This document shows, piece by piece, positions 1-13,447 of a DNA stretch of 64,000 nucleotides. A model generated the notes under the pieces. That model worked only from the letters and a program-made list of their open reading frames with translations. It made no database searches and had not been told where the DNA came from. The stretch comes from Candidatus Woykebacteria bacterium (GTDB lineage: Bacteria; Patescibacteriota; Microgenomatia; Woykebacterales; RBG-16-39-9b): NCBI GenBank assembly GCA_040876345.1, contig JBBDPM010000001.1, positions 192,314 through 256,313 on the forward strand, given 5' to 3'. The first letter of the stretch is position 1, and every line of letters starts with the position of its first letter. A program made the position numbers and the translations under genes.

Positions 1-46
1 TCTTTACTTCCGGGGATATAAACAAGGTTTGAGCAAACCCTTCTAT

Positions 47-682
47 CTAAAATAATAAGCTTGCAAAAAAGCCTGCAATTACAGGAAGCAAAAGGTTATC
101 CCACCCTTTTGTAGTAGCTGCTTCAGCAAAAGTCAGAACCAGAGAAAAAACAACAAAAGTAACTAGACTTGATATCGAAATTTCGCCATAGTTAAACCCA
201 AAGAAGCAAAATATAGAAAATGTTGTCAGAAGGAAAGCTAGGCTGCCTTCAGAAGTTACAAAGAAAAGTTTTCTTTTCCCATATTTATAACCAACAAAGC
301 CAGCTACAGAATCTGAAATAGCTAGTACCAGCACCGAAAGTTTAAAGGCAGTCAAATTAGAGTCCCAAAATAAGAGTCCTGAAGTAACCAAACCTAGTGG
401 GAATAGGATTGATCCTAAAGAACTACGATTCACTCTTGTTACGCTCGGTAATAGCTTAAAGACTTCTGAGAACGCCAAGACCAATGTGAATAGAATTCCC
501 AAAGCTACAGCCTGTCCTAAAGTTAGGTGATAAGGCATCATAAATGCAACTAAGCCGCTAAGAAGATGAGTAGATCTTCTGGTTATCTCGGAGTTTAAAC
601 GAAGATACTTAAAAGAAATCTCCCCAATTAGAAATATTGTTACAAACAAAATAAGGAAGCTAATTAAAGGGACATCCATCAT
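47..682 (-). CDS. polytopic membrane protein of the CTP-transferase superfamily (CdsA / dolichol-kinase / CarS-like)
   Basis: 211 aa, about 6 TM segments. C-terminal DSVAGFVGYKYGKRK-type motif and overall topology resemble phosphatidate cytidylyltransferase/dolichol kinase family. Last gene of the lipid operon (overlaps the upstream gene by 4 nt). Confidence 0.45.
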   Translation of the reverse strand: MMDVPLISFLILFVTIFLIGEISFKYLRLNSEITRRSTHLLSGLVAFMMPYHLTLGQAVALGILFTLVLAFSEVFKLLPSVTRVNRSSLGSILFPLGLVTSGLLFWDSNLTAFKLSVLVLAISDSVAGFVGYKYGKRKLFFVTSEGSLAFLLTTFSIFCFFGFNYGEISISSLVTFVVFSLVLTFAEAATTKGWDNLLLPVIAGFFASLLF

Positions 683-1191
683 TTATTTTTTCTCAGAAAG
701 TAGGCAAATCCTTTATTTTTAAGTTTTAAAAGCTTAAATAAACTTCTCAGATTAAAGTAGCGAAGTAAAAGTAGTCTAGTTTTAACCATAAGAGGTAAGG
801 TATTGAGACTGACTTTTTTAAATCCTATATCGAAAAGCATGGATTGAATTAGGTTATTTGTTGTCGCTGCAAATATATTCTTTCCGACTAATTCTTTTGC
901 TGCTGAAGAGATTAATAGTTTCTTACTAATTTTCTTGCCTCTATACTCAGGGAAAACATAAAGGGTAGATAGCCCCCACCAGTTATTCCAGATTTTATAC
1001 TTTTCTACCCACCCAAGAATTTTACTGTCCTCGTTTGTGGCGATAAGAAAGTCGCCTTTCTTAAAAGAGTTTGTTATCAAACTTGTTGATCTGTAGCTTA
1101 AGTTCTCATCTTTAAGGCTAATCTCTGAGATTTTTTGTATAAGTTTATGATCTTGACTCATTGCCTTTCCGTTAACAACTAAAATTTTCAT
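679..1191 (-). CDS. GNAT family N-acetyltransferase
   Basis: YVFPEYRGKKISKKLL...AAKEL matches acetyl-CoA binding motif A of GNATs. Likely start MKILVVNG at 1191, forming an ATGA overlap with the upstream CDS stop; the track ORF extends to 1251. Confidence 0.55.
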   Translation of the reverse strand: MKILVVNGKAMSQDHKLIQKISEISLKDENLSYRSTSLITNSFKKGDFLIATNEDSKILGWVEKYKIWNNWWGLSTLYVFPEYRGKKISKKLLISSAAKELVGKNIFAATTNNLIQSMLFDIGFKKVSLNTLPLMVKTRLLLLRYFNLRSLFKLLKLKNKGFAYFLRKNK

Positions 1192-1793
1192 TTTAGTCCT
1201 AAGTAAAACATGTAAAGTGCTATAAGTAATAAAAATGTTACGATCGGCCAAATCCTTTGGGGTTTAGGGAATGCAAAAGTACCTATCATTAAAGAGCTTT
1301 GCAGAATTATTAAAAGCCACGAGGCCAATCTTAAAGAGAGGCCACTTATGGCAAGTGAAATAACTGAAACGGAAAAAATGGTAAGATAGCTGAAAACTAC
1401 TGGCAGGCCTGGGTATCCCATCTTGGTTTTCTCTCCGACATAACCCACAATGTTAAACCTGACTAGTCGAAAGACGCCAGCTAAGACAAAGATGTAAAGT
1501 ATCACAACTGATGTTAAGTCTTGCAATTTAAAATGTAGATAGAAAACAAGGGATGGGTAAATAAGATAAATAAAGGCGTCGACAAAACTATCCAATTGTC
1601 TACCAAATTCTGACTCCTGCTTAAACCTTCGTGCTAAAAAGCCGTCAAACGTGTCGGCTATAAAAGCAACCAAGGCAGTTCCAAGTGATAAGTGAAACCT
1701 ACCGTTGATTAGGAGAAGAATAGAAATCCAAGCAAGGAGAAGAGCTAAGTATGATACAAGGTTTGAAATACTAAAAGGTTTTATTTTATCCAT
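1188..1793 (-). CDS. CDP-alcohol phosphatidyltransferase
   Basis: DTFDGFLARRFKQESEFGRQLDSFVDAF matches the D-G-x2-A-R-x8-G-x3-D-x3-D signature. 201 aa, multi-TM. Confidence 0.75.
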   Translation of the reverse strand: MDKIKPFSISNLVSYLALLLAWISILLLINGRFHLSLGTALVAFIADTFDGFLARRFKQESEFGRQLDSFVDAFIYLIYPSLVFYLHFKLQDLTSVVILYIFVLAGVFRLVRFNIVGYVGEKTKMGYPGLPVVFSYLTIFSVSVISLAISGLSLRLASWLLIILQSSLMIGTFAFPKPQRIWPIVTFLLLIALYMFYLGLK

Positions 1794-3519
1794 TTAATGC
1801 AACTAATCCAGTTTCAAGATCCATTTTAATTTCCTTGTCGTTAGGGATTATCTTAGTAGCATTGCTAGCATTAATTATGCAAGGGATACCAAATTCTCGA
1901 GCCACTATTGCTGCATGAGATAATGACCCGCCCCGTTCCACTACTAGACCTCTTAATGAGGGGAAAATGATTGTCCAGCCAGGATCTGTTTGTTTGGTAA
2001 CAAGTATTTTGTTTGAATAATCTTTATTAGGATCAAAATCTACAACCACCAAAGATCTTCCTTCAATTACTGTGCCAAACTTACCTTGCGAGGCTAGGTC
2101 TCCTTTGACTGATTTTTCTTTAGTCTCAGTCGTTAATTTACGGGTCTGATTCTTAAGTAAGGTTTTATTATAAATTTCTGGTGTAAAGTTGGTAGTAATT
2201 CTTCTTGGCAGATCAATACTTTTCCAAGACTTTTCTTGACTTTTTCTTTCCGCAACAGTCTTGATAAACGAAGTTTTTTTACTTTGGTGGGATCTAAAAA
2301 AGGTAAATATTTCTTCCACTTCTAGATAGAAAACATCACTGCGGCTCTTTAATGCCTCTCGTTTTTCTAATCTTTTCCCAAACTCTCTAAAAACTTTTCT
2401 AGCAATGCCAAAAATTAATGATCTTTTAAATCGAGTCTCTTCGCGCATCTTTATTGAAGATTCCGACCAGTTTAGAATAAAGTTAAACACTAGGCGCTTA
2501 AAAAGTTGAAGATTTTTCACTTCTATTTCCAGATATCTAGTCGAGATGATTTTGCGGGGTTTTATCTCACTTCTTAAACTATTTTTTAGCAATTTTATTA
2601 AAACCAGAGGATCGTCTTGAAAACTTATTGACTCAAGTTTTAGTTCCCCGGGCATTCGTGAACCAAAATCTTCTATGTAACGGCGAATCTTTTTTCTTAT
2701 CTCGGCTAACTGACGGTCTGAATTGATTTCCGATAGTATTTTTTGGGAAGACTGAGATTTAAACAGACTTTTGGCTTTTTCGTCATTAAAAATTGTTCTG
2801 GCTATTTCCTGCATAGCTTTGCCTGGCTCGGCACTTTTTAAACCTATACCACCGGAGATAAAGTAGTTTGCTTTTGAATTATCTTTGTCATCAAGCCATT
2901 TTTTGGTTAATTTCTTCAAAATACCGACACTTATCATTACTGCAAAGTCGTTAGCAATCGGAGTACTGAAATCTTTTGTGAGAGTTTCCTCAAAACTTTC
3001 GTAAAATTCTACCAACTCTTTATCATCCTTGACGTCATAGCGCACTTTATTTAAATAGGAAAAGTTTCTATCAAAAGTCTCATTGAATCGCCTAATTAAA
3101 AGCTTCATAAACACGAACGAAATAGAGATTCGAAAGATACGATAAAAAAGATTGGCCAGATCGAATAGCCTTTCAATTAAATGGGTTTTTTGCCCGGCTT
3201 CGTAAAAATACTCTTCATCTACTCCAAGCATTTGCTCCAAGAACTTACCGTTGAATCTGTATCCTGGTAGCAAGGCGATGAGTCGGTGCCAGTTAATTAG
3301 ATGGTAATACATACTCCCGCCAATAAATGCCAACATATTTGGAAAAAGATCGGCATTTTCTGTTAAATCCTTATTACTTACGCCAAACAATTTACAGAAG
3401 CTCACATAAACTTTTTCGTAGGCTCTCTTAGCAAATGAATAAGTTAGAGGTGTAGTTACGCCTGAGTAGCTTTCATTTAAGTTTGAGTTGTCGAAAATAA
3501 AGCCTATTTTGCTAGCCAT
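1786..3519 (-). CDS. PEP-utilising-enzyme mobile (phosphohistidine swivel) domain protein with an unrecognised ~480 aa N-terminal region
   Basis: C-terminal GGSLSHAAIVAREFGIPCI is the conserved phospho-His motif of PEP synthase/PPDK/rifampin-phosphotransferase swivel domains. No ATP-grasp motifs recognised N-terminally. Confidence 0.55.
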   Translation of the reverse strand: MASKIGFIFDNSNLNESYSGVTTPLTYSFAKRAYEKVYVSFCKLFGVSNKDLTENADLFPNMLAFIGGSMYYHLINWHRLIALLPGYRFNGKFLEQMLGVDEEYFYEAGQKTHLIERLFDLANLFYRIFRISISFVFMKLLIRRFNETFDRNFSYLNKVRYDVKDDKELVEFYESFEETLTKDFSTPIANDFAVMISVGILKKLTKKWLDDKDNSKANYFISGGIGLKSAEPGKAMQEIARTIFNDEKAKSLFKSQSSQKILSEINSDRQLAEIRKKIRRYIEDFGSRMPGELKLESISFQDDPLVLIKLLKNSLRSEIKPRKIISTRYLEIEVKNLQLFKRLVFNFILNWSESSIKMREETRFKRSLIFGIARKVFREFGKRLEKREALKSRSDVFYLEVEEIFTFFRSHQSKKTSFIKTVAERKSQEKSWKSIDLPRRITTNFTPEIYNKTLLKNQTRKLTTETKEKSVKGDLASQGKFGTVIEGRSLVVVDFDPNKDYSNKILVTKQTDPGWTIIFPSLRGLVVERGGSLSHAAIVAREFGIPCIINASNATKIIPNDKEIKMDLETGLVALNG

Positions 3520-4421
3520 AAAGAAGTAGACATACCTATGTTTAACAATATTGCGTAAATGATAGAACAGAAAAATACCTTTTTAGAAGTCTTAACATTT
3601 GGCTTTTCTTTGAACTTATTAATTACTACAGCCAAATACAAAAAACAAACTAGCGCTGGAAGCAGTGGTATGAGGCTTGTACTTTTGGCCACTATAGATA
3701 TAAAAACTGAAAAAATAAGACTTAAAGCAGATAAACCAGCTAGCAATTTACTGGCGCCGTCGATGCCGTATTGAGCTGTGTATGTGTCTTTTGATGGAAT
3801 CTCTAAAGTCTTTGGTCTTATTTTCCTGGCAACTTCTAAGCTGAAAAACGAAGCCGTTAAAAGGAGGGAGTGAGCCGTAAAGAGGTAATTGGTGAGAAAA
3901 TCGAAGCTTTTTATATTTATAGAGTATAGGTAAAAGAATATGGGTATTGCTAGAACCTCATGCACTGCAATATAGACAGTAAAGTGTTTCTTTAGCCAAT
4001 ACTTGGCAAAAAATTCTTTTAATAGGAGTAAGGAATACGAAAGAGCAATAATAAAAAAAACAAAAGCTGCTCCCCCTGAATAGAGGCTTAATATCAACTC
4101 AAGTGCAAAAATAATAAAAACTAGACTTCTTAACTCGGAGAGGGAGATTAATCCTCTTGGGACAGGCCTGGTGGCGTAGTGCTCTTTATCATGCTCAAAG
4201 TCTTTAAATTCATCAAAAAGACGAAGTCTAAATAAAAAAAGGAACAGAGCAAGACAACTGAGTAAACCCCTCTCTAGTTTATAACTACCCTCTGAAAAAA
4301 CTTGAGCGAACAAACTTGCGTGTAAACCAAATATTAGAGATAGCGTAACGAACTGATACAAAGGGAAACGCTCGCTTAGATAAATAAAACCCCTTTTTAA
4401 TAATCCGCTTGTGTTCTGCAT
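3504..4421 (-). CDS. UbiA-family aromatic/isoprenoid prenyltransferase (membrane)
   Basis: D-x3-D-x3-D (LFDEFKDFEHD) Asp-rich motif and ATRPVPRGLIS (compare RPLxSGxIS of UbiA/DGGGP synthases). 8-9 TM helices. First gene of operon. Confidence 0.6.
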   Translation of the reverse strand: MQNTSGLLKRGFIYLSERFPLYQFVTLSLIFGLHASLFAQVFSEGSYKLERGLLSCLALFLFLFRLRLFDEFKDFEHDKEHYATRPVPRGLISLSELRSLVFIIFALELILSLYSGGAAFVFFIIALSYSLLLLKEFFAKYWLKKHFTVYIAVHEVLAIPIFFYLYSINIKSFDFLTNYLFTAHSLLLTASFFSLEVARKIRPKTLEIPSKDTYTAQYGIDGASKLLAGLSALSLIFSVFISIVAKSTSLIPLLPALVCFLYLAVVINKFKEKPNVKTSKKVFFCSIIYAILLNIGMSTSLWLAK

Positions 4422-4616
4422 AAATTTCCCTATTCATAATATACTGACTTAAACTAGGAAACAATCATTTCTTAACACAAGTTGAGTAGTTTTTAATGAT
4501 AATTCCGCGAACTAAGTAACAAATAAGTGGATTGAGTCTTGAGAACGGAAAGATCGATTGTTAATTGTGGAAGTTTGGAACCAATGATACCTAATGATTG
4601 TCTAAAACTAGAAAAT

Positions 4617-5564
4617 TCAATATATCAGGCCAGCTAAATTTTTGCTTACTTTTAAGCCTAAAAAGTTTAAGTTAACGCACCTAAGACTAAATAGCTTATT
4701 AGGTAAGAAATTGAGGGGACTGTTGTAATTGTTTGAAGGATTTGTTTTGTTTTTGGTTTGGTTGTAAGGAATTTGAAGATTGAAACAGTAGTAGCCTTGG
4801 GGATGGTAGTAGGGTTGATCAGTGGAACCGTAAGAGCCTCTATTCTCTGATGAAGAGGTATCAAAAGTAGCACAGAGCTTGTAATAAGTATCTGTTGTTG
4901 GTTGATATTGATATGGTTGCCCAGTCTTAGGATCAGCAACATAACCATAGTAACTTAAAGTTGTGTCGCTTAGTGTTGCCGGCAGTTTACCGTTTTGACT
5001 GTAATAGTTTTCAATCGCGTACTTTAGATTATAGATGTCATTAATCCTTTGTTGATCAGATTGCTTGGCTTTAGATTGAGATCGATTCAGGGCATTAAAA
5101 AAGTAAATACCGCCAACAACTAGAATTAGTATTAGAGCTACTATAATCGCTTTTGTTCTATCAGGTTTAATGGGTTGGGTTTCTTTTTTAGATTCTTGAG
5201 GCGCTGATTCTTTACCTAATGCACTTAAGATTTGAGATTCAGCCCAGCCTTTTTCTCTTAATCTGAGAAAAATGTCACTTTCGGGCATACCATTTTGTTT
5301 TGCTTGATTTGCATAATTAATTAAAGCCGTCTCTTCTTTGGTCAAGGCTTTTTGCGGAATTTGCGTTGGTTTAGGCTTTCCGAACCAAGCATCTACCAAC
5401 CAAAGTGTAAAAGACCCAGTAGCATAGGAGAGCGGAATCCAAATAATTAGGCCAAGCCCAAGGGTGCAAACTACCGAAGCTAAAAAAATAATTGGTCCGC
5501 CAATAGGTAAGAGGACAACCATTAAAACAACAAAACCGATCAAAGTTTTAATAGGTTTAGACAT
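4617..5564 (-). CDS. membrane-anchored protein with C-terminal type-IV-pilin-like domain
   Basis: 2 N-terminal TM helices. Central TM helix followed by QQRINDIYNLKYAIENYYSQNGKLP, the helix-DNG-YP pattern typical of CPR pilin/pseudopilin proteins. No canonical prepilin leader. Pro/Tyr/Gln-rich tail. Confidence 0.4.
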   Translation of the reverse strand: MSKPIKTLIGFVVLMVVLLPIGGPIIFLASVVCTLGLGLIIWIPLSYATGSFTLWLVDAWFGKPKPTQIPQKALTKEETALINYANQAKQNGMPESDIFLRLREKGWAESQILSALGKESAPQESKKETQPIKPDRTKAIIVALILILVVGGIYFFNALNRSQSKAKQSDQQRINDIYNLKYAIENYYSQNGKLPATLSDTTLSYYGYVADPKTGQPYQYQPTTDTYYKLCATFDTSSSENRGSYGSTDQPYYHPQGYYCFNLQIPYNQTKNKTNPSNNYNSPLNFLPNKLFSLRCVNLNFLGLKVSKNLAGLIY

Positions 5565-6586
5565 TATCGTTTGTTATCCAATATAATCTCCCAATATCTA
5601 ATAAAACAGATTATCAGAGCTAGGTAAAATGGAATTGCCAAGGCAACCTCAACTGGCGTGTGCGTAATTGGTGTATTGATCCCCACGAAATTTTCCACCG
5701 CACTTGGGCCATAGATGCGAAGACCACTGGCTATAAACCAAGACTCGAGTGGAAGGAATACAGTTGTCCCAACGATCAGATAAAGAGCGAACCTCTTAGC
5801 AATGTCTAGTTGAATAAAAATTCTATCCACCAACCCTGTAGCAAGCCAGATAATTATTATCCAAACACCGCTCATTAAAATACTAATGTCGCGGTACATA
5901 TACGACCAAGATGGAAATTTGGCATTAACCACCATTGGCTCTACCATTAGTTCAAAGAAAAATACACCAATAAATGCGAGGGCCAAGTTTCTAAGCCAGG
6001 CTCTGTTTTTCACTGGCACAATAGCTTTATCATCAAGTGAAAAGCTCCAATATTTATAAAAGGCTATTACTAAACTAGTAAATACCGGTATGTAATAAAG
6101 AGCCTCGATAGGAACGTTTATTATGAAATAGCCAACCAGAGTATCCAAAACCTCTGGTGAGTAGGCTCTTATACCAAGGCCGACTACGCTAGACTCTGCA
6201 ATAAATACAGCTACAGTTATTAGTAGTAAGTAAACAATAAACCTCTGCCACTCAATATATTTTGAAAAAAACTTATCCACCAAAATTACAGCCGTCAAAA
6301 TCATTGTTGACCAACCAACAGTTAAAATCCAACTCACATCTCTATAAACATACGCCCACCACCCAAGTTTAAAATTGTTCCACATTGGAGCAGTAAAGAT
6401 TTCAAATATTAGGACTCCGGCGGCTACTAGGAAATAACGTTGAGGAATCTTATCCTTAATTCTGGATAGTAGAAAAAGAATAATTATTGTACCGAGTATA
6501 ATAAATATTTCGAAAAAAAGAATTGATAACGTTGGTGTTTTATCAAACTCGTGTAGTAAATTATATGTTATATCTTTTGGTATCAT
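5564..6586 (-). CDS. polytopic integral membrane protein with internal duplication
   Basis: 340 aa, about 10 TM. The two halves share the WW(A/S)Y(V/M)YRD(V/I)S...W...GLVD(K/R) motif. 4-nt overlap with radical SAM gene upstream; start overlaps the stop of the pilin-like gene. Confidence 0.5.
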   Translation of the reverse strand: MIPKDITYNLLHEFDKTPTLSILFFEIFIILGTIIILFLLSRIKDKIPQRYFLVAAGVLIFEIFTAPMWNNFKLGWWAYVYRDVSWILTVGWSTMILTAVILVDKFFSKYIEWQRFIVYLLLITVAVFIAESSVVGLGIRAYSPEVLDTLVGYFIINVPIEALYYIPVFTSLVIAFYKYWSFSLDDKAIVPVKNRAWLRNLALAFIGVFFFELMVEPMVVNAKFPSWSYMYRDISILMSGVWIIIIWLATGLVDRIFIQLDIAKRFALYLIVGTTVFLPLESWFIASGLRIYGPSAVENFVGINTPITHTPVEVALAIPFYLALIICFIRYWEIILDNKR

Positions 6587-7806
6587 TTAGTTATCGGAAT
6601 TCTACTAGGTTTTCTACCGTTGCCGTTGCTAGCCTGTTTTTGAGCGAGTACCTTGTCTAATATGTGTTCACCAGGCGATACTGCGTCTTTCTCTCTAAAT
6701 TCGGAATCTTTTATTTTACACCCACCCCATTTAGCACAGGTAAAACCTTCAGTGGAGGTGAGCCTATCCCAAACCCTGTAAAGAGGCTCCTCAATAGCAT
6801 TACCAAAAGTTGCATGGTTGAAATCACACGACATGACGTCTCCATAGGGCGAAAGATAAAAATAACTTGTACCACAAGAACACCCGACGCTTCGGTGGCT
6901 GGATGCATAGGCCCAAACTATGACGCCTGGGTACGATTCATCCTTATTATATTTCACACTCCGATTGATAATTTCTTCAACCCAGTTTTCATTATCAATT
7001 AAATCTTTTCTGAATTTATATCTTCCCGTTGGCATCGCATCAAATATTACGACCTCATGTATGCCCATCTTCTTAGCAAGATCAAGAATCTTTTCCATCT
7101 CACCTTCAGCAAAAGATTCTGGTGTCAAAGTGGTTGAAATACCAACAGAAAAACCCAATTCCTTTGCTTTCTCAAGGCCCTTCATCGCTTCTTTAAAGAT
7201 GCCCTCTCTGCCACGGAATAAATCATGTTTTTTAGAATCTGCAGAGTCGATGCTTACATAAACACTGTCTAAACCAGCATTTCGCAGGGTCTTTGCTTTT
7301 TTTGCTAGTAAGATTCCGTTGGTGAACATTAGAGTAGTAGATAAATCCTTATTCACCGAATCAATAATTTTTGGCAAATCCTCACGAAGTAATGGCTCAC
7401 CACCGACAAAGTTCATTACTGAGACACCAAGCTCTTGGGCGTCCTTTATCAACTTCTTCGCCTCCTCTAAAGTTAGAACTTTTCTTGATCTATCTTCCAC
7501 GGCAGTAAAGAAGCTGCAGTGTTCGCAATGGGCGTTGCAGATGTCATTTATGGCGTAGCTCATCATATTTGGAAGATTTTTATTTTGAATGGTTCTGTAG
7601 AGTTGTCTCGCGAAAAAATTTGCGGCTGGTTTACTGTATAAAGATGGAGTAGATAGAGAGTAAACAGGCTTACCATCTCGCCAGTGAATAACTTTGTTGT
7701 GGTTTAAATAAATTTTATAAATCTGATCTAAATAATCCGAAGTATAACCAAGCGTTTTAGTAGCAAGAAACCACTTTAGCTTTACTTTATTAAATAGTGA
7801 GTTCAT
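6583..7806 (-). CDS. radical SAM enzyme with C-terminal SPASM/twitch-like Cys cluster
   Basis: CNAHCEHC is the CxxxCxxC motif. FVGGEPLL glycine-rich SAM motif. C-terminal Cys-rich CSCG...C...C...C region. ~100-aa N-terminal extension of unknown type. Confidence 0.75.
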   Translation of the reverse strand: MNSLFNKVKLKWFLATKTLGYTSDYLDQIYKIYLNHNKVIHWRDGKPVYSLSTPSLYSKPAANFFARQLYRTIQNKNLPNMMSYAINDICNAHCEHCSFFTAVEDRSRKVLTLEEAKKLIKDAQELGVSVMNFVGGEPLLREDLPKIIDSVNKDLSTTLMFTNGILLAKKAKTLRNAGLDSVYVSIDSADSKKHDLFRGREGIFKEAMKGLEKAKELGFSVGISTTLTPESFAEGEMEKILDLAKKMGIHEVVIFDAMPTGRYKFRKDLIDNENWVEEIINRSVKYNKDESYPGVIVWAYASSHRSVGCSCGTSYFYLSPYGDVMSCDFNHATFGNAIEEPLYRVWDRLTSTEGFTCAKWGGCKIKDSEFREKDAVSPGEHILDKVLAQKQASNGNGRKPSRIPITK

Positions 7807-7813
7807 TTATAAC

Positions 7814-8285
7814 TAACCTTCTTCTAATATGGTCTTAAGATTTTTAAGCATCTCTTCTGCCGAGTGCTGATTTAGTTTGTCGAGCACAGTTCTGCCAAAC
7901 AACTTTTGTAAAACACCTTCTGGGAGCGCATACTCTACCTCTACTGTAACTTTAGTTCCACCGCCTTTCTCGCCAAATTTATAAGTCCAGGTAGATTCGC
8001 CACCATTCTTTGTTTTTATTTCAACTAGTGTGGTCTTTCAAATTTAGTCCCCTCGGCCCTACCAGTCAAGTCTAAACCTGCAAAGTTGAACCGCCAATTA
8101 AATGTTTGGCCTACCCCAGGCTTTTCTGGATTTATATTCGTATTTTCCATTAAATTAGGAATAAAGGCGGGGCCATTTTGTGGGTCTGCAGTATAATCAA
8201 AAACCTTTTCAAGCGGTTTCTTGATAAATATGGAGGACTTTACTTTACCCAATTTAAATATCTCCTCTGCAAATAATACTAACAT
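7814..8285 (-). pseudogene. SRPBCC (Bet v1-like / polyketide-cyclase-like) ligand-binding protein, interrupted by a 1-nt frameshift
   Basis: Track ORF 8025-8285 encodes the N-terminal half. The C-terminal half (KTTLVEIKTKNGGESTWTYKFGEKGGGTKVTVEVEYALPEG...LEEG) is in the -1 frame from ~8040 to the TAG at 7814-7816. The shift sits in an A-run (tttgaaaga). Stop lies 8 nt upstream of the radical SAM start. Confidence 0.5.
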
Positions 8286-8437
8286 TTAAAAAATTAAAAG
8301 GGAATACAATAGACTTTTTGTCCACAGTCTTACCATCTCAACAAAAAGTATATGGCGCAGCATAGTAGTCTCAAGCACCTAATCGTTATAGTCAGGTCTA
8401 ACTTTGAAGCTAAATGAGGCAAGTATATTTGTAAGTG

Positions 8438-9720
8438 TTAAATTCTTTTGACTCCTATTGTACAGCTACCAAAAAGACCAGTTAGAGTACCTCCTAGGTC
8501 AACGCTAACCCTGTCCCCGGCGGCTATAGTGGTCGGAGAAGAAATTAGCGTTCCACTAACAACTGTATTTATAGTTCCGGAGAGATTTATATTGCTGGTC
8601 AATTGAGATGTACCCGAACCTGGGGATTGTGTTCCCGTGTCAACTGTTAACTGCAGAGTTCCCAACAAGAGAGCTTTTACCGAATAGACGCATTTTACGC
8701 TGGTTAAACTATAGTTTGCATCAGCGATAAAGACAGTGTTATCAAGTAGTGAAGATAGTAGGTTAACACTGACAAAAAGCGTCTGCGGAACTATCGACCC
8801 TCCAACAGTCAAATTATCGGCAGTGGTGACAGATAAAGTCTTTCCAGATGATATTGTAGTGTTACCCGCTAACGTTATCGCCCCAGTTCCCGTATAAAAT
8901 GTGCCGGCTGAAGAAGACATATCAAAGTTTCCGTTGATAGATAAGTTACCAGTGCTGCCCCCATCAGCGATACTGAAAAGCGTGTTGGAACCATCACGGA
9001 AAACAATTGACCCAGTGTTACCCACGTCAATGTTAAAGGTAGTAGCTGTTGTAGTAAGGTTACCACCGTTTATGCCTAAATTTCCAGTTAAGGTACCACC
9101 AGATAAGGGTAGATAATTGGAAACTGTTATTAAATCAGAAATATTACTATCAGTAATGGAGCCAGTTATACTGCCAAATGATCCAAGGGCGAGAGTTAAT
9201 CCTAAATTACCCAGGGTACCCGAATTTAGAGCTGAAGCTGAAATTGAAGATCCGGATCCTAAGGTCAAAGTATCGGAAATATTTGTGTCTCCCATACTGC
9301 CAGGTTATTGACCCGAAACTTCCCAAAGCTAAAGTAACCCCAGCGTTACCAAACGTTCCCGAGTCTATGGCGGTAGACGATAGGGAAGAGGTTGGTCCAA
9401 CTGTTAGCACATTTGGTATATCAGAATCTGTCAAACCGCTAACACCAAAAACAGTCAAACTTCCCAACAACGTTCCACCCGCGAGAGGTAAATAACTCGA
9501 AGCCGTAATATTATCGGCAATATTTGAGTCAGCTAAAGTGCCGGAAACACTGCCAAACGACCCAAGGGCCAAGGTAATTCCGGAATTACCAAGCGTCCCG
9601 AAGAAATGTTTGAAGCGTTAAGTGAAGTAAGATTTGCACCGCTTAAGACTGGCAATAGACCAGAGCCATTAAGCTGAACAAGCTGACTGGCACCATTTCG
9701 GTTGATAATTCTGATGAGTT
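8438..9720 (-). pseudogene. phage-tail-fibre-like Gly/Thr/Ser-rich repeat protein, multiply frameshifted
   Basis: Repeated about 50-aa units (ALNSGTLGN.G.TLALGSFGSI.G...DSNI.D.IT.S.YLPL.GGTLTG.L). The YLPL(S/A)GGT(L/M)TG motif is characteristic of tail-fibre proteins. Reading frame changes at least three times (about 9290, about 9600, about 9720). No intact N-terminus. Confidence 0.5.
9150..9610 (-). repeat. tandem diverged DNA repeats (about 140-240 nt period) inside tail-fibre-like gene
   Basis: actgccaaa(c/t)ga(c/t)ccaagggc...aattacc recurs at about 9165, about 9305 and about 9545, encoding the LALGSFGSI..DSNI..YLPL unit. Confidence 0.5.
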
Positions 9721-9807
9721 ATCAGTTTTTACAAAGATGAAATAAAAGTTTCGTTTATCTACTACCCCTTCTCTCACTCCTTCCCAGTCGAAAAATTAGA
9801 CAATGAA

Positions 9808-10113
9808 TTGCAGCTTTTCTCAGTTAAGGACATAGCGGTTATTAAAGCTTACACCATTGGTAGAAGAGGTGAATATCGAGATTATTTTGATTTATATACG
9901 ATTCTGAAGAATGACTACATTAGGTTGCCCGAACTTATATCCAAAGCAAATAAAGTGTATGGTGGTGTTTTTGAGGAAAAGATATTTTTACAGCAGCTAG
10001 TGTATTTTGGTGATATTTTAAACTTTGGTATTACACCAACTACTGATCCCTCACCTAAAGAGGACGAAGTAAAACGTTTCTTCGAGGAATTAGCCAAAAA
10101 CTACTTACTTTGA
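9808..10113 (+). pseudogene. C-terminal remnant of AbiEii/DUF1814-type nucleotidyltransferase toxin
   Basis: 101 aa containing RDYFDLYTIL (compare the R-D-L-Y-D-L-Y block near the C-terminus of AbiEii family). No N-terminal NTase domain and no AbiEi partner upstream. Confidence 0.35.
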
Positions 10114-10117
10114 ATAG

Positions 10118-10957
10118 TTATTCTACCTTCTGCCAAATATCAGGTTTTATTCCTCTTGATTTGATCTGGTCGATCGTGGTGAGGTAAAAAGAAATGTTTG
10201 CTCCTTCTGAATCCAACTCCTTGACGATGAATTTTGAAAGAAATCCTTTGGTTACATAACTTGGGCAAATCATTAAAATTTTAGGAAAGGGATGCTTTGT
10301 ATTCTCTAGCCACTCATTTGAAAAGTAATATTCAATTAAATCTTTGATACGGCTCCGAAGAGCGTACCTTGGAACTTGCGGGCTGACCATCTCTTGAAAA
10401 TAGCGCCTAATTTCGTTATTTTCCTCCCAGGCGATGTAGGCGTTGGGTAAAGGCTGGGGAAGGTATTTGTGATCCTCAAGGTCAGTTTTAGTGAAAAGGT
10501 GGATTTTGCCTTTTGTTTCTTTTACCGCTTTTTGCAGATTCATAAAAATATCGGCTAGAAACATGCTTTGGTCTCTGAAGTACGGGGAGCGGGTCTTTTC
10601 CCGGTAGATGCGGTTTAATAAGTCTAAATTTATGTTCTTTTGCTCCTTCAAGATACTTCGGCTTTTGTTATCAAGAAAGTAGACTGCCGGTTTTGTGTTC
10701 TCACCAAGCTTTCGGGAGTAGGTTCTCGCTAAGACTCCTTTATCTGTTAACTTGGATAACCATGATCTAATACGACTGTGGTATTTGTGACTGAGCAAAG
10801 TCTGGATCTGTTGTCTGTTTAGAAAACGGAATCGGTAAAGTAGAAGAAGTATTTCAGTTTGTTTGTTAGTTACGGTCGGTGGTTGCACTAGTTTTAGGAA
10901 GGTTAGGACAGAGGCAGAGGTATTATTGATATTCCTCAAGTCGAGAGTATAGCACAC
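10118..10957 (-). CDS. replication-relaxation family protein (plasmid/mobile-element associated)
   Basis: N-terminal LTxxQxEILLLLYRFRFLNRQQI wHTH segment typical of the replication-relaxation (PF13814-like) family. 279 aa. Confidence 0.5.
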   Translation of the reverse strand: MCYTLDLRNINNTSASVLTFLKLVQPPTVTNKQTEILLLLYRFRFLNRQQIQTLLSHKYHSRIRSWLSKLTDKGVLARTYSRKLGENTKPAVYFLDNKSRSILKEQKNINLDLLNRIYREKTRSPYFRDQSMFLADIFMNLQKAVKETKGKIHLFTKTDLEDHKYLPQPLPNAYIAWEENNEIRRYFQEMVSPQVPRYALRSRIKDLIEYYFSNEWLENTKHPFPKILMICPSYVTKGFLSKFIVKELDSEGANISFYLTTIDQIKSRGIKPDIWQKVE

Positions 10958-11027
10958 CTCCCCCCTTCTTTAGAAGGGAAAGAGGTAAGGAAATTTGGAA
11001 AAATAGATTCAAAAATAGCCAAATTAT

Positions 11028-11048
11028 GTGTCAGAGCGCTGACACAAT
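11028..11048. promoter_or_regulatory. 8-bp inverted repeat TGTGTCAG-AGCG-CTGACACA upstream of replication-relaxation gene
   Basis: Perfect 8-bp arms with 4-nt spacer in the 570-bp non-coding region 5' of the 10118-10957 gene. Candidate operator/nick site. Confidence 0.3.
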
Positions 11049-11532
11049 TTGGGAAAACAAAGTAATAAACATCACTTATCGAACTCTATATTAGACCGTT
11101 GTATCAATCAATAATCACCTTTATAACTCCTGGTGTCCACTTTGGTGACCCTAACAACTCTGCAATTAAACACCTTGGTTCAGGTTCTGAAGGAATGGAA
11201 GGGTTTGAATATACTTGGAGGAATTGAGGCTAGTGATAGGTTAGGAAGTAATTACCTAAGTTGATTAGAATCGTAATTACTTTATACTTAAAAGTGAATA
11301 ATGGAAAACTATTTAATCAATTTATGAGGTAGGCTACCGAACGATGTCCGAACCTACTACAGCACATTATCTCAGAAAGATATTGCGTTCTTCAAGCATT
11401 CGTTTCTTCAACTCACTTAATTTTCCCTCGTGTAAAAATGTGAAGAAAATGTTTTTTAGTAACTCTGCGGTTTCTATTTCCTTTTGAATATTAGATCAGT
11501 TGTCAAAGTAGAAATTATGTGACTTTGAAGAA

Positions 11533-11922
11533 CTATTTATTAGGAGAAAATTCAATTATCCACTCAATACCGTATTTATCTCTAAACATACCCATATATG
11601 ATCCCATACCATCAGTCATAGGTACTTCTACATTACCTCCAGATGAAAGGCCATTAAATATTTTTTCTGCCTCTTCTTTACTTTCTGTACTTATTGCAAT
11701 TTTACTTCTATTTTCATTTTCATTTACTTGTCCCATACCTTCTGGAACATTATTTGCAATTAACATATTATCTTTACCAATAGGTAAGGTAATAAACATC
11801 ATTTTATTTTCATCTTTATCATTTAGTACTTTTCTAACATCCCCACCGAAAACCGATTTATAAAAATCAAATGCTTCTTCAGCATTACCGTTAAAGTTGA
11901 TCCAAGGATTTATTTTAATCAT
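11533..11922 (-). CDS. PhnB-like / VOC (glyoxalase-fold) family protein
   Basis: 129 aa. NFNGNAEEAFDFYKSVFGG... pattern of the PhnB/3-demethylubiquinone-9 methyltransferase-like VOC proteins. Markedly AT-rich relative to neighbours. Confidence 0.55.
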   Translation of the reverse strand: MIKINPWINFNGNAEEAFDFYKSVFGGDVRKVLNDKDENKMMFITLPIGKDNMLIANNVPEGMGQVNENENRSKIAISTESKEEAEKIFNGLSSGGNVEVPMTDGMGSYMGMFRDKYGIEWIIEFSPNK

Positions 11923-12011
11923 AGTTTAATAATATCAAATTATTGTAAATTTTAGAAGATGATTTGTATTTAAAAATAAAGAGATATATAAATCCATATT
12001 AAACTATATCG

Positions 12012-12350
12012 ATGGGTGAGGGACCACACAAACCACTTTGGTGGGTTTTAACTCTCACAATTCCAGTAATATTATATGTCGTTCGAAGACTTACAATTAA
12101 TAAAGGTGTAAATAGCTTACTTCCTTCGAATAAAGTCTCCTTTTTTATTATAGTAATTGGTTTGGTTTCATTGATTATTATTTTCTGGATTGGATATCAA
12201 ACTTATATACAAGTGGTTTTGAACAGATGCAAGAGTTATATGACTCAAGATGACAGAAAAGTGGTTAAATTAATTGACAGAACAGTCAAATATGGTGACC
12301 CCGGGGGGATTCGGACCCCCGATCTCCTGGATGAGAACCAGGTATCCTAG
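12012..12350 (+). CDS. small hypothetical membrane protein (3' part doubtful: runs antisense through the tRNA)
   Basis: ORF with 2 predicted TM helices; overlaps tRNA-Glu on opposite strand from 12293 onward. Confidence 0.2.
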   Translation: MGEGPHKPLWWVLTLTIPVILYVVRRLTINKGVNSLLPSNKVSFFIIVIGLVSLIIIFWIGYQTYIQVVLNRCKSYMTQDDRKVVKLIDRTVKYGDPGGIRTPDLLDENQVS

Positions 12351-12369
12351 GCCGCTAGACGACGGGGCC
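12293..12369 (-). tRNA. tRNA-Glu (anticodon CUC), CCA encoded
   Basis: Minus-strand sequence GGCCCCGTCGTCTAGCGGCCTAGGATACCTGGTTCTCATCCAGGAGATCGGGGGTCCGAATCCCCCCGGGGTCACCA. 7-bp acceptor stem (one G-U), D arm, anticodon loop TTCTCAT, T-arm GGGGG-TCCGAAT-CCCCC. Confidence 0.8.
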
Positions 12370-12465: not shown

Positions 12466-13447
12466 CTATACCTCTCCATTCTCTTTCTTTCTTGCGTCTC
12501 CTCCTTTTCCGTTGCCGAGTCGCTCCCGACGCGTCTTACCGTAGAAGCCGGCGTATTCTGGGTGACCATTATCGATCATTAGCCGGGCGATCCTACGCAT
12601 AACTAGATCACATAGAGCCCGGTCTTCGCTAACGCCGTACCTCTTGCTGATCCGCTTGGCGCGCCGATCCCCCTCCTCATATGAGATTGGCTCACCGAAG
12701 ATGACGGTGACCTTGCTGAATGGGTGTGGACGCCAATTTCCAGGCCTCCACATCTTATCCGTTCCTATGAGGGCCATCGGCAGAATGTTCGTGTCAGGGT
12801 GACGTAGAGCAGTGGCTACTCCATCGTGGACCTTCTTCATACCCGGGACCAAGACACGAGTTGCTTCCGGGTAGATAAGTGTCCAGTAGCCCAACTTTAG
12901 AAACCTTCGTAGTTCCGGAAAAGCGGCCGTGTTGATCCGGTCCGCATTTCTCAGATGCTGTTTACGTTCCTTGCTTGTCAGTGTGCGTAGGAATTTCCTC
13001 TCCAGCATCTTTTCGGGGACGATGGGAATATAGTGGCCGCCTTCGGTTAACGAAGATCATGCCGATGACAGAACGGAACAAGTCTTCAGCGAGTTCTACC
13101 TCCCCTAGGAACCTGATGGCGGTTTGAGGGATGAACGCATCAGGCATCGCCTTGTGGTTACCGACCACTTGGGTGCCCCTTCCACTCGCCAAAGCCCCTT
13201 CAACGTTCTCGGCTCCCTTTACCACTAAGTTGCCGAGCCACCACTTTAAGTAGCCCAGCGGGAGGATAGCTGCCTTGGCGATTTGCCAAACGAGCTTATT
13301 ACGAGGATGAAACCCAGCTGGATCATCATCGTCAAGAAGCAGACCGGTCTTTGTATCCATCAACCATCTGCGTGTTAGCTCACCTACCGCGATTGTGAGA
13401 GCGGCGGTGGCAACCACGGATAGCCTGGACGCCGTTTGCTCACGCAT
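12466..13447 (-). pseudogene. PlsC-type (lysophospholipid) acyltransferase, frameshifted, in a GC-rich foreign block
   Basis: N-terminal part (12962-13447) has the HX4D motif (GNHKAMPD). C-terminal part (12466-13008) has YPEATR (compare FPEGTR) and ILPMALIG. The two are in different frames; shift near 13010-13030. G+C visibly about 55-60% versus about 38% elsewhere. Confidence 0.55.

Follow-up and report, generated by a model that had tools for sequence, protein, structure and literature searches.

In the present work we analysed a stretch of 64,000 nucleotides from the genome of a Candidatus Woykebacteria bacterium (GenBank assembly GCA_040876345.1, contig JBBDPM010000001.1, positions 192,314 to 256,313 of the forward strand; this whole stretch is referred to as the window and numbered from its first letter), with the focus on a cluster of minus-strand genes around a radical S-adenosylmethionine (rSAM) enzyme. 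Nine overlapping genes of this strand form one operon, which runs from position 8285 to position 47. Its evolutionary core is a trio consisting of a twitch-type rSAM enzyme, a pseudo-symmetric membrane protein with nine transmembrane (TM) helices and a small protein with two TM helices. Because this core recurs, from cyanobacteria to bacteria of the Candidate Phyla Radiation (CPR), beside genes for building lipids, a membrane lipid rather than a peptide is probably what it makes or modifies. The interpretation that we favour, at a probability of roughly one half, is that the operon is a horizontally mobile cassette that builds and tailors a radical-tailored, probably isoprenoid, amino-lipid.

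Distribution and conservation of the gene cluster

The rSAM protein of the window is 100% identical to an NCBI protein named for Candidatus Woykebacteria, and close relatives of it number in the hundreds. When species-representative genomes were scanned, 80 rSAM loci were obtained at 54-73% identity, 45 of them in Cyanobacteria, 11 in Chloroflexi, 9 in Planctomycetota and 3 in Verrucomicrobia, the rest being 4 metagenome-assembled genomes (MAGs) labelled as Proteobacteria, 4 CPR genomes and 4 without label. The cyanobacterial carriers include Calothrix, Oscillatoria, Spirulina, Microseira and Synechococcus; Calothrix PCC 7103, PCC 7716, Oscillatoria PCC 10802 and Spirulina subsalsa are culturable. 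Neighbouring genes were counted by tblastn and by clustering of open reading frames (ORFs), with 73 loci having enough sequence and 37 being well flanked. The gene of the 9-TM protein lies directly downstream of the rSAM gene in 70 of the 73 loci, and next to it the small 2-TM protein is encoded in 41 loci according to tblastn and in 55 according to clustering. A UbiA-superfamily prenyltransferase and a rifampin phosphotransferase (RPH)-like protein are encoded within 7-8 kb of the rSAM gene in 27 of the 37 well-flanked loci. Both of these partners fall outside the region from 4617 to 8285 that had been singled out in an earlier note on this DNA, made from the sequence alone. The four-gene block described there also turned out not to be the conserved unit, as its SRPBCC gene occurs in Woykebacteria only and its pilin-like part in three loci.

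The core is accompanied by one of two sets of putative head-group genes. The first set comprises a CDP-alcohol phosphatidyltransferase, a small GNAT acyltransferase, a 211-aa membrane protein and a CarS-like protein, and is found in the CPR genomes and in two MAGs labelled as Gammaproteobacteria. The second set is carried by Cyanobacteria, Chloroflexi and the Planctomycetes-Verrucomicrobia-Chlamydiae (PVC) group and consists of a DUF3419 protein (BtaA-like, 227 bits), a GNAT-like protein and an AMP-binding protein (fatty-acyl-AMP ligase, FAAL) or a reductase. In L091, a MAG without a CPR label, the order of the nine genes is identical to that of the window. A complete nine-gene cassette of the CPR type, ordered as in the window, was seen in the contigs L026/L091 and L044 labelled as Gammaproteobacteria; either the entire block was transferred horizontally or these contigs were mis-binned. 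At the loci L039, L046, L047, L056, L066 and L070, tblastn finds the rSAM gene alone and no other member of the cassette; some contigs of this kind are short, but the sequence at L046 (Phormidium sp. FACHB-1136) extends for 8 kb to either side.

Organization of the operon

The four consecutive minus-strand ORFs described in the earlier note are present at their positions and form the 5' part of the operon. The features of the locus are as follows.

7813 to 8285, minus strand: SRPBCC (Polyketide_cyc2) pseudogene, recognised by Pfam half-matches in split frames
6583 to 7806, minus strand: rSAM enzyme of 407 aa, with Pfam Radical_SAM match and CxxxCxxC motif
5564 to 6586, minus strand: membrane protein of 340 aa with nine TM helices in the AlphaFold2 model and an internal duplication
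5190 to 5564, minus strand: small-subunit part of a 315-aa ORF (4617 to 5564), recognised by homology to stand-alone proteins
4617 to 5162, minus strand: C-terminal fusion of the 315-aa ORF, residues about 135 to 315, conserved in L009 and L010
3504 to 4421, minus strand: divergent UbiA-superfamily prenyltransferase of 305 aa (Pfam UbiA)
1786 to 3519, minus strand: RPH-like protein of 577 aa (Pfam PEP-utilizers and Rph_4th)
1188 to 1793, minus strand: CDP-alcohol phosphatidyltransferase of 201 aa (Pfam, 66.9 bits)
679 to 1191, minus strand: small GNAT acyltransferase, 170 aa as called in L007 (ORF and Pfam)
47 to 682, minus strand: membrane protein of 211 aa with seven to eight TM helices (motifs in the family alignment)
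1 to 55, plus strand: 3' end of a convergent CarS-like gene (CDP-archaeol synthase family), cut by the edge of the window

The rSAM gene overlaps the gene of the 9-TM protein by 4 nt, and the latter overlaps the 315-aa ORF by 1 nt, as had been described; the spacing of 8 nt given for the SRPBCC and rSAM genes needs correction, since 6 nt separate the SRPBCC stop (7813) from the rSAM ATG (7806). The operon does not end at 4617, where the note had placed its end. The coupling continues via five further genes to position 47, with overlaps of 16, 8, 4 and 4 nt between the genes of the UbiA protein, the RPH-like protein, the CDP-alcohol transferase, the GNAT protein and the 211-aa protein. The earlier proposal of co-translation is supported, and the rSAM enzyme around which the operon is built is not a housekeeping one. 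The Logan assembly L007, which was produced separately, agrees with positions 1-12000 of the window at 100% identity. A NAD_binding_4-type reductase and a PlsC-type acyltransferase are encoded just beyond the window edge, past the CarS-like gene. Scans for promoters and terminators gave nothing better than shuffled sequence, with one exception: a promoter-like sequence scoring 10/12 lies ahead of the SRPBCC gene (8374-8347).

A gap of 195 nt (4422-4616) separates the small-protein gene from that of the UbiA protein. At this site the Woykebacteria relatives carry a GNAT gene on the opposite strand (L004, 12670-13236; L009, 4144-4650; L010, 6119-6631). As only the 195-nt gap is found in the window, this gene has been lost here.

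The radical SAM enzyme

The CxxxCxxC motif of the enzyme (C90/C94/C97) is invariant among its relatives, and the Pfam model Radical_SAM (PF04055) matches with 101.6 bits at a cut-off of 29.5. The Pfam SPASM model scores 21.5 bits, which is exactly its cut-off. Only four cysteines of the C-terminal part are invariant in 44 relatives (C309, C311, C327 and C363, pattern CxC...C...C), and the protein lacks the seven cysteines of a SPASM domain with two auxiliary [4Fe-4S] clusters. The presence of only four invariant cysteines points to a single auxiliary cluster and to a C-terminus that is twitch-like rather than a full SPASM domain. Of the earlier description, the CxxxCxxC motif is retained, as is the twitch-like part of what had been called a SPASM/twitch-like C-terminus.

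The N-terminal extension comprises about 80 aa, and not about 100 as first estimated; it is rich in invariant residues and specific to this rSAM family. In the AlphaFold2 model (mean pLDDT 83), it is predicted to form a long helix (residues 2-34), a hairpin (41-48) and a further helix (59-73), with pLDDT values of 65-84. The recognition elements (RREs) of ribosomally synthesized and post-translationally modified peptides (RiPPs) have a PqqD-like beta3-alpha3 fold, and the modelled domain does not look like an RRE. Within the N-terminal helix the hydrophobic moment is at most 0.41, so that this helix lacks a strongly amphipathic character and gives no argument for membrane docking.

None of the curated rSAM families of NCBIfam, including BlsE and the mycofactocin families, reached its cut-off, the scores being two- to seven-fold below. 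NirJ2 was the best match with 140.6 bits (cut-off 500), and AhbD gave 131 (500), MoaA 117 (325), HpnH 74 (225) and PqqE 84 (381). This search is the check that had been proposed for the housekeeping question: the enzyme falls into no curated housekeeping subfamily, the best score being 141 of 500, and its neighbours are conserved across phyla.

A Foldseek comparison of the model with the PDB returned BlsE, SuiB, MoaA, SkfB and PqqE at the top (query-normalised TM-scores of 0.49-0.58, E-values of 1e-17 to 1e-11, identities of 16-20%). These enzymes share the partial TIM-barrel core and a C-terminal auxiliary-cluster domain with the present protein. They differ from it in that the latter has the 80-aa non-RRE N-terminus, the CxC...C...C pattern and a membrane and lipid gene context. 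The lipid-modifying enzyme GDGT-MAS (7tol) aligns with 45 bits, over core residues 81-266 only, the solved chain having 526 aa, and the core aligns likewise with the HpnH model at the sub-cut-off score given above. By Foldseek, GDGT-MAS aligns over about 200 columns with a query-normalised TM-score of 0.40; the similarity does not amount to full-length homology. A role in a defence system was considered and rejected, as PADLOC gave a generic viperin-core match for the rSAM enzyme only and no match for the partner proteins.

No small ORF is conserved beside the trio at the loci compared, and no conserved ORF for a precursor peptide was found, in agreement with the earlier remark that no precursor ORF was obvious.

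The membrane partners

The 340-aa membrane protein arose by internal duplication, as had been recognised; the two halves align over 124 aa with 34% identity (E = 2e-22). The number of TM helices, previously given as ten, is nine in the AlphaFold2 model (pLDDT 88, pTM 0.88). They are arranged as 1+4+4, that is a leading helix and two tandem 4-TM units, each with conserved Glu, Asp and Arg residues. The predicted fold has no match in the PDB (best E = 0.2, TM-score below 0.3) and resembles no transporter there; the protein belongs to no NCBIfam family and matches Pfam only below threshold. Only 120 relatives were obtained when 1.84 billion representative proteins were searched exhaustively with a profile, and the weakest of these provided neither a bridge to a known Pfam family nor informative fusions. 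Half-size homologues that are full-length proteins of 177-194 aa exist in an N-type (P0268, P0275, P0291) and a C-type (P0272, P0287, P0296), which implies that some organisms encode the 9-TM protein as two genes. The sole recurrent signal, a weak and sub-threshold one, is Pfam Lycopene_cyc (PF18916), seen in 11 of 40 members with a best E-value of 1.3e-4; the protein of the window scores 15 bits (cut-off 27, E = 0.037) over profile positions 3-92 of 92. We regard this likeness of the 4-TM repeat as a lead.

The part of the 315-aa ORF that is conserved in the family extends from residue 1 to about 115-125. Stand-alone homologues have 133 aa in L004, 143 aa in Calothrix (L001) and 130-170 aa elsewhere, with two TM helices. 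These helices carry the motif S..CT.G..L..W.P and are followed by a short helical domain with the pattern AL..Y...A...G.....I..RL...GW; the Cys-Thr pair is kept in at least 90% of 53 sequences. The C-terminal extension adds a third TM helix, so the 315-aa protein has three TM helices and not the two that had been counted, and a domain with RINDIYNLKYAIENYYSQNGKLP, DPKTGQPYQY and two conserved cysteines. It is conserved only in the window, in L009 (330-aa protein) and in L010 (323-aa protein).

The pilin-like C-terminal part gave no hits in a search for homologues, and no Pfam or PDB match was obtained even at E <= 10. A prepilin motif of the G|FTLIE type is found in no frame of the window, and the protein does not qualify as a type IV pilin or pseudopilin. 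The label pilin-like, which we keep from the earlier description, is thus a matter of motifs: the presumed likeness to GspG and other pseudopilins consists only of R..D/N I..L..AIE.YY...G.LP, DP..G.PY.Y and two cysteines. The domain is probably a clade-specific extracytoplasmic appendage on the adaptor, as we term the small protein. If the N-terminus of the small protein lies in the cytoplasm, the helical domain of the adaptor would be cytoplasmic, beside the rSAM enzyme, and the pilin-like domain would be outside. The idea that the pilin-like protein is the radical substrate had been raised before; as no locus other than the window, L009 and L010 has the domain, it cannot be the substrate of the family.

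Lipid-type genes downstream of the trio

The UbiA protein matches Pfam PF01040 with 43.3 bits (cut-off 34.2). Its first Asp motif, D70-x3-D74-x3-D78, is invariant together with R85, and the second motif is replaced by E196..R199-K200...E; these residues suggest that the protein belongs to the superfamily but has an unusual second site. Among solved structures, digeranylgeranylglyceryl phosphate (DGGGP) synthase is nearest (27.8 bits), and the second PDB match is chlorophyll synthase.

The RPH-like protein possesses the substrate-binding and swivel-His domains and lacks the ATP-grasp domain (PPDK_N), and so does not have all three parts of an RPH. It aligns to positions 323-889 of PRK06241.2-2, a model of 898 positions. 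The matching PDB entries 5fbs and 5hv1 are deposited as phosphoenolpyruvate synthase, and we take them to be rifampin phosphotransferase. The cyanobacterial orthologues, of about 855 aa, include PPDK_N and thus all three parts; the copies of the CPR type have 559-577 aa (window; L091, 13523-15202) and are without ATP-grasp.

The CDP-alcohol transferase scores 83 bits with the NCBIfam model of archaetidylserine synthase (cut-off 240) and 68 with pssA (cut-off 107). The GNAT protein, the longest ORF of which begins with a TTG at 1251, is found together with the CDP-alcohol transferase at 6 loci. The 211-aa protein is present in 12 loci. Its alignment contains the motifs E..R(K/R)..H, D..AG..G, KT.EGS and E..G.DNL..P, which we presume to be those of polyprenol and phytol kinases. 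Pfam CTP_transf_1 matches weakly (E = 0.036-0.055 in 3 of 11 members), and a profile search of the PDB gave no match; from these motifs and matches, the protein may be a CTP-dependent lipid kinase or a cytidylyltransferase. The CarS-like gene is complete in L007, where it encodes 186 aa (Pfam CarS-like, 48 bits).

The SRPBCC pseudogene

The first gene of the operon is broken. The N-terminal half of the SRPBCC domain is encoded by an ORF from 8285 to 8025 and the C-terminal half in the -1 frame from 8037 to 7813, and the two match Pfam Polyketide_cyc2 (PF10604) separately, at positions 3-68 (22.2 bits) and 76-142 (24.6 bits). In a DNA alignment with intact orthologues, the lesion is a 1-nt deletion at 8028|8027 (CAC|TAG), the gap following CCACAC; the intact orthologue used for comparison of the frames reads ...GTKYERPHLAEIKT... 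here. The fold and the frameshift had thus been recognised correctly, and the site of the lesion is not the A-run to which it had been assigned. The same frameshifted sequence is present in L007. Since the domain is not whole in one frame here and intact orthologues of 150-155 aa carry it (L004, L008, L009), we consider the copy in the window a pseudogene; L010 retains only a C-terminal remnant. The gene is confined to Woykebacteria loci, and this pattern of occurrence and loss suggests a lineage-specific, decaying accessory, which may formerly have been a lipid carrier.

Genomic surroundings

Directly upstream of the operon, a Gly/Thr/Ser-rich protein of 285 aa without Pfam match is encoded at 9295..8438 on the minus strand, overlapping a 121-aa ORF at 9572..9207. 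Both ORFs (8438-9572, minus strand) share the motif ...LALGSFGSI.G... and may be parts of a single, longer gene for a repetitive surface protein, interrupted by a frame break; no DNA repeat was reported there by Tandem Repeats Finder. Further upstream follow a Replic_Relax gene (10957..10118), a glyoxalase-fold gene (11922..11533) and a tRNA-Glu(CTC) gene (12369..12293). L004 and L008 have wholly different upstream genes, and the segment 10118-12369 may be variable or formerly mobile. A second broken gene of the window lies at 12466-13447, in a patch of 46% GC compared with about 36-40% in neighbouring 2-kb segments. It has the appearance of a PlsC-type acyltransferase split by a frameshift into two minus-strand ORFs. 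The one at 13447..12962 (161 aa) contains the HxxxxD-like motif NHKAMPD; the other, at 13008..12466 (180 aa), weakly matches the C-terminal part of Pfam Acyltransferase.

Proposed function and alternatives

For the substrate of the radical reaction, a lipid, a cofactor and the pilin-like protein had originally been considered. A lipid fits better than a RiPP, given the neighbouring genes of the UbiA, RPH-like, CDP-alcohol transferase, CarS-like, BtaA-like/GNAT/FAAL and acyltransferase/reductase types. As in a lipid pathway, these genes would provide for prenyl transfer, for the transfer of phosphoryl and cytidylyl groups, for attachment of a head group by alcohol-phosphatidyl or aminocarboxypropyl transfer, for N-acylation, and for activation and reduction of fatty acyl chains. 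We propose that the UbiA protein and the phosphotransferases would assemble a lipid core of the prenyl type, probably ether-linked and isoprenoid, to which the head-group enzymes would attach a polar group of the serine or homoserine type, with N-acylation of this group by the GNAT protein. The soluble rSAM enzyme would dock onto the pair of membrane proteins via its own N-terminal domain and the cytoplasmic domain of the adaptor. The duplicated 9-TM protein, with the weak CrtYc/CrtYd lycopene-cyclase likeness and the conserved acidic residues of its repeat, would hold the hydrophobic tail. C-H activation by the 5'-deoxyadenosyl radical could then lead to cyclisation of the tail, to its cross-linking by C-C coupling or to a similar change. 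The radical step would have its analogy in Tes, Mss, Grs and HpnH, and the combination of a UbiA protein with a two-copy cyclase in CrtEb with CrtYe/CrtYf.

In its most specific form this proposal is tentative, and we hold it with clearly less confidence than the general one. It states that the pathway produces an undescribed lipid class, a serine or homoserine amino-lipid with a prenyl or isoprenoid tail that is cyclised or cross-linked by radical chemistry of the rSAM enzyme together with a new, cyclase-like membrane fold, and that it has spread horizontally among cyanobacteria, Chloroflexi, PVC bacteria and CPR.

Several observations weigh against the lipid cassette. Synteny, conservation and domain content are what the analysis shows; all of the chemistry is deduced from the neighbouring genes. 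Among the genes of the cluster, none for isoprenoid synthesis, geranylgeranylglyceryl phosphate (GGGP) synthase or glycerol-1-phosphate (G1P) dehydrogenase was seen. The UbiA protein is without the canonical second Asp-rich motif, and a tblastn search of the window found no separate ATP-grasp partner for the RPH-like protein. The likeness of the 9-TM protein to Lycopene_cyc is below the Pfam threshold, and its distant relatives give no bridge to bona fide members of that family. The assignment of the 211-aa protein as a kinase comes from weak Pfam matches and from motifs that we only presume to be diagnostic. Furthermore, L092 and about 10 of the 37 well-flanked loci consist of the trio without UbiA or RPH-like genes; as about a quarter of the well-flanked loci are of this kind, the trio may act independently on a ubiquitous membrane molecule.

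This last point supports the strongest alternative, to which we give somewhat less weight than to the specific lipid class above. According to this explanation, the trio modifies a widespread molecule other than a phospholipid, such as a quinone, a carotenoid, a hopanoid, a polyprenyl-phosphate carrier or a prenylated tetrapyrrole, and the UbiA and head-group genes are frequent neighbours that are functionally separable from it. The trio stands alone in L092 and the other loci of this kind, the 9-TM cyclase-like repeat recalls carotenoid cyclases, and the UbiA superfamily includes heme O synthase as well as the chlorophyll synthase found as second PDB match. The best curated matches of the rSAM enzyme, NirJ2 and AhbD, modify tetrapyrroles, but their scores of 131-141 bits are far from the cut-offs of 500. 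To our knowledge, carotenoids, quinones and tetrapyrroles are not made by CPR bacteria, and yet CPR genomes keep the full cassette. Moreover, the UbiA and RPH-like genes are found in 27 of the 37 loci and their order is constant across phyla.

Modification of a protein or RiPP-type substrate appears improbable. In this case the rSAM enzyme would cross-link the small 2-TM protein, or in this clade its pilin-like extension, or modify it in another way, and the 9-TM protein would be an exporter, a protease or a scaffold. rSAM enzymes with SPASM or twitch domains are typical peptide maturases, with SuiB, SkfB and CteB among the structural neighbours, and the N-terminal extension is placed where RiPP recognition elements sit; its predicted helix-hairpin-helix structure, however, differs from the RRE fold as we know it. 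The nearly constant adjacency of the small protein and its conserved Cys-Thr pair speak for this reading, but the protein is a conserved 2-TM protein with a folded domain and not a leader-plus-core peptide, and the pilin-like part is absent in almost all members. The 9-TM protein is unlike any transporter in the PDB, and the cluster has no conserved protease or ABC exporter, its conserved neighbours being lipid enzymes. Finally, a housekeeping rSAM enzyme (MoaA, NirJ/AhbD, anSME, PqqE or HpnH) beside unrelated genes would account for the generic core similarity (70-141 bits; MoaA, BlsE and PqqE structures), but is effectively refuted by scores two- to seven-fold under the cut-offs of all curated families, by the family-specific and invariant N-terminal domain and Cys pattern, and by neighbours conserved in 70 of 73 loci.

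Comparison with known systems

The archaeal tetraether synthase Tes/GDGT-MAS, bacterial Mss, the ring synthases GrsA/GrsB and the adenosylhopane synthase HpnH are likewise rSAM enzymes, and they act on hydrophobic lipid tails in or at the membrane. GDGT-MAS has additional clusters or cluster domains. We know of no obligatory duplicated membrane partner, no adaptor and no N-terminal domain like the present one in Tes, Mss, Grs or HpnH. The literature on Tes and Mss covers a different rSAM family. Like the family described here, the lipid-tail rSAM enzymes Tes/GDGT-MAS, Mss, Grs and HpnH are patchily distributed via horizontal transfer (PMC13159169).

The heterodimeric or fused CrtYc/CrtYd cyclases and the C50-carotenoid system of CrtEb with CrtYe/CrtYf resemble the cassette in having small multi-TM units in two copies, split or fused, conserved acidic residues and a neighbour of the UbiA family, and the Lycopene_cyc model aligns over its full length, at a sub-threshold score, to one repeat. 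In contrast to CrtYc/CrtYd, the present repeat has four and not three TM helices, phytoene synthase and desaturase are absent, and the partner is an rSAM enzyme. Carotenoid cyclases need no rSAM enzyme, and CrtEb is an elongase of the UbiA type.

Genes for archaeal DGGGP synthase, CarS and archaetidylserine synthase have been reported in some FCB (Fibrobacteres-Chlorobi-Bacteroidetes) and Parcubacteria genomes (PMC7852524). The cassette is similar to this archaeal pathway in that the UbiA protein is nearest to DGGGP synthase, a CarS-like gene is present and the CDP-alcohol transferase matches archaetidylserine synthase best. However, the scores are far below the cut-offs, the second Asp motif of UbiA is missing, and GGGP synthase and G1P dehydrogenase are absent from the cluster. 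In the cyanobacterial cassettes, moreover, CarS and the CDP-alcohol transferase are swapped for a BtaA-like enzyme.

The RPH-like protein shares the Rph_4th and swivel-His domains with RPH and the PigC/RedH family, the CPR-type copy being entirely without the ATP-grasp domain. In the RPH reaction, a hydrophobic substrate receives phosphate that has passed from ATP to a histidine of the enzyme.

Full-text searching of a collection of papers found no description of this cluster. Tailoring of lipids by rSAM enzymes is a known type of chemistry, and what we class as new here is the obligatory membrane partner within it.

Significance

Several lipid biomarkers have recently been explained by the tailoring of membrane lipids by the rSAM enzymes Tes, Mss, Grs and HpnH, which has also blurred the 'lipid divide' between Bacteria and Archaea. 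Here we describe an uncharacterised rSAM family that spans at least five phyla at about 60% identity and is almost always encoded beside a 9-TM protein and near UbiA, CarS-like or BtaA-like genes. As its carriers include culturable cyanobacteria, the prediction of a lipid product is directly testable. CPR bacteria are generally described as relying on others for their membrane lipids. A complete and transferable lipid cassette in these organisms would, if true, inform how CPR bacteria build their envelopes.

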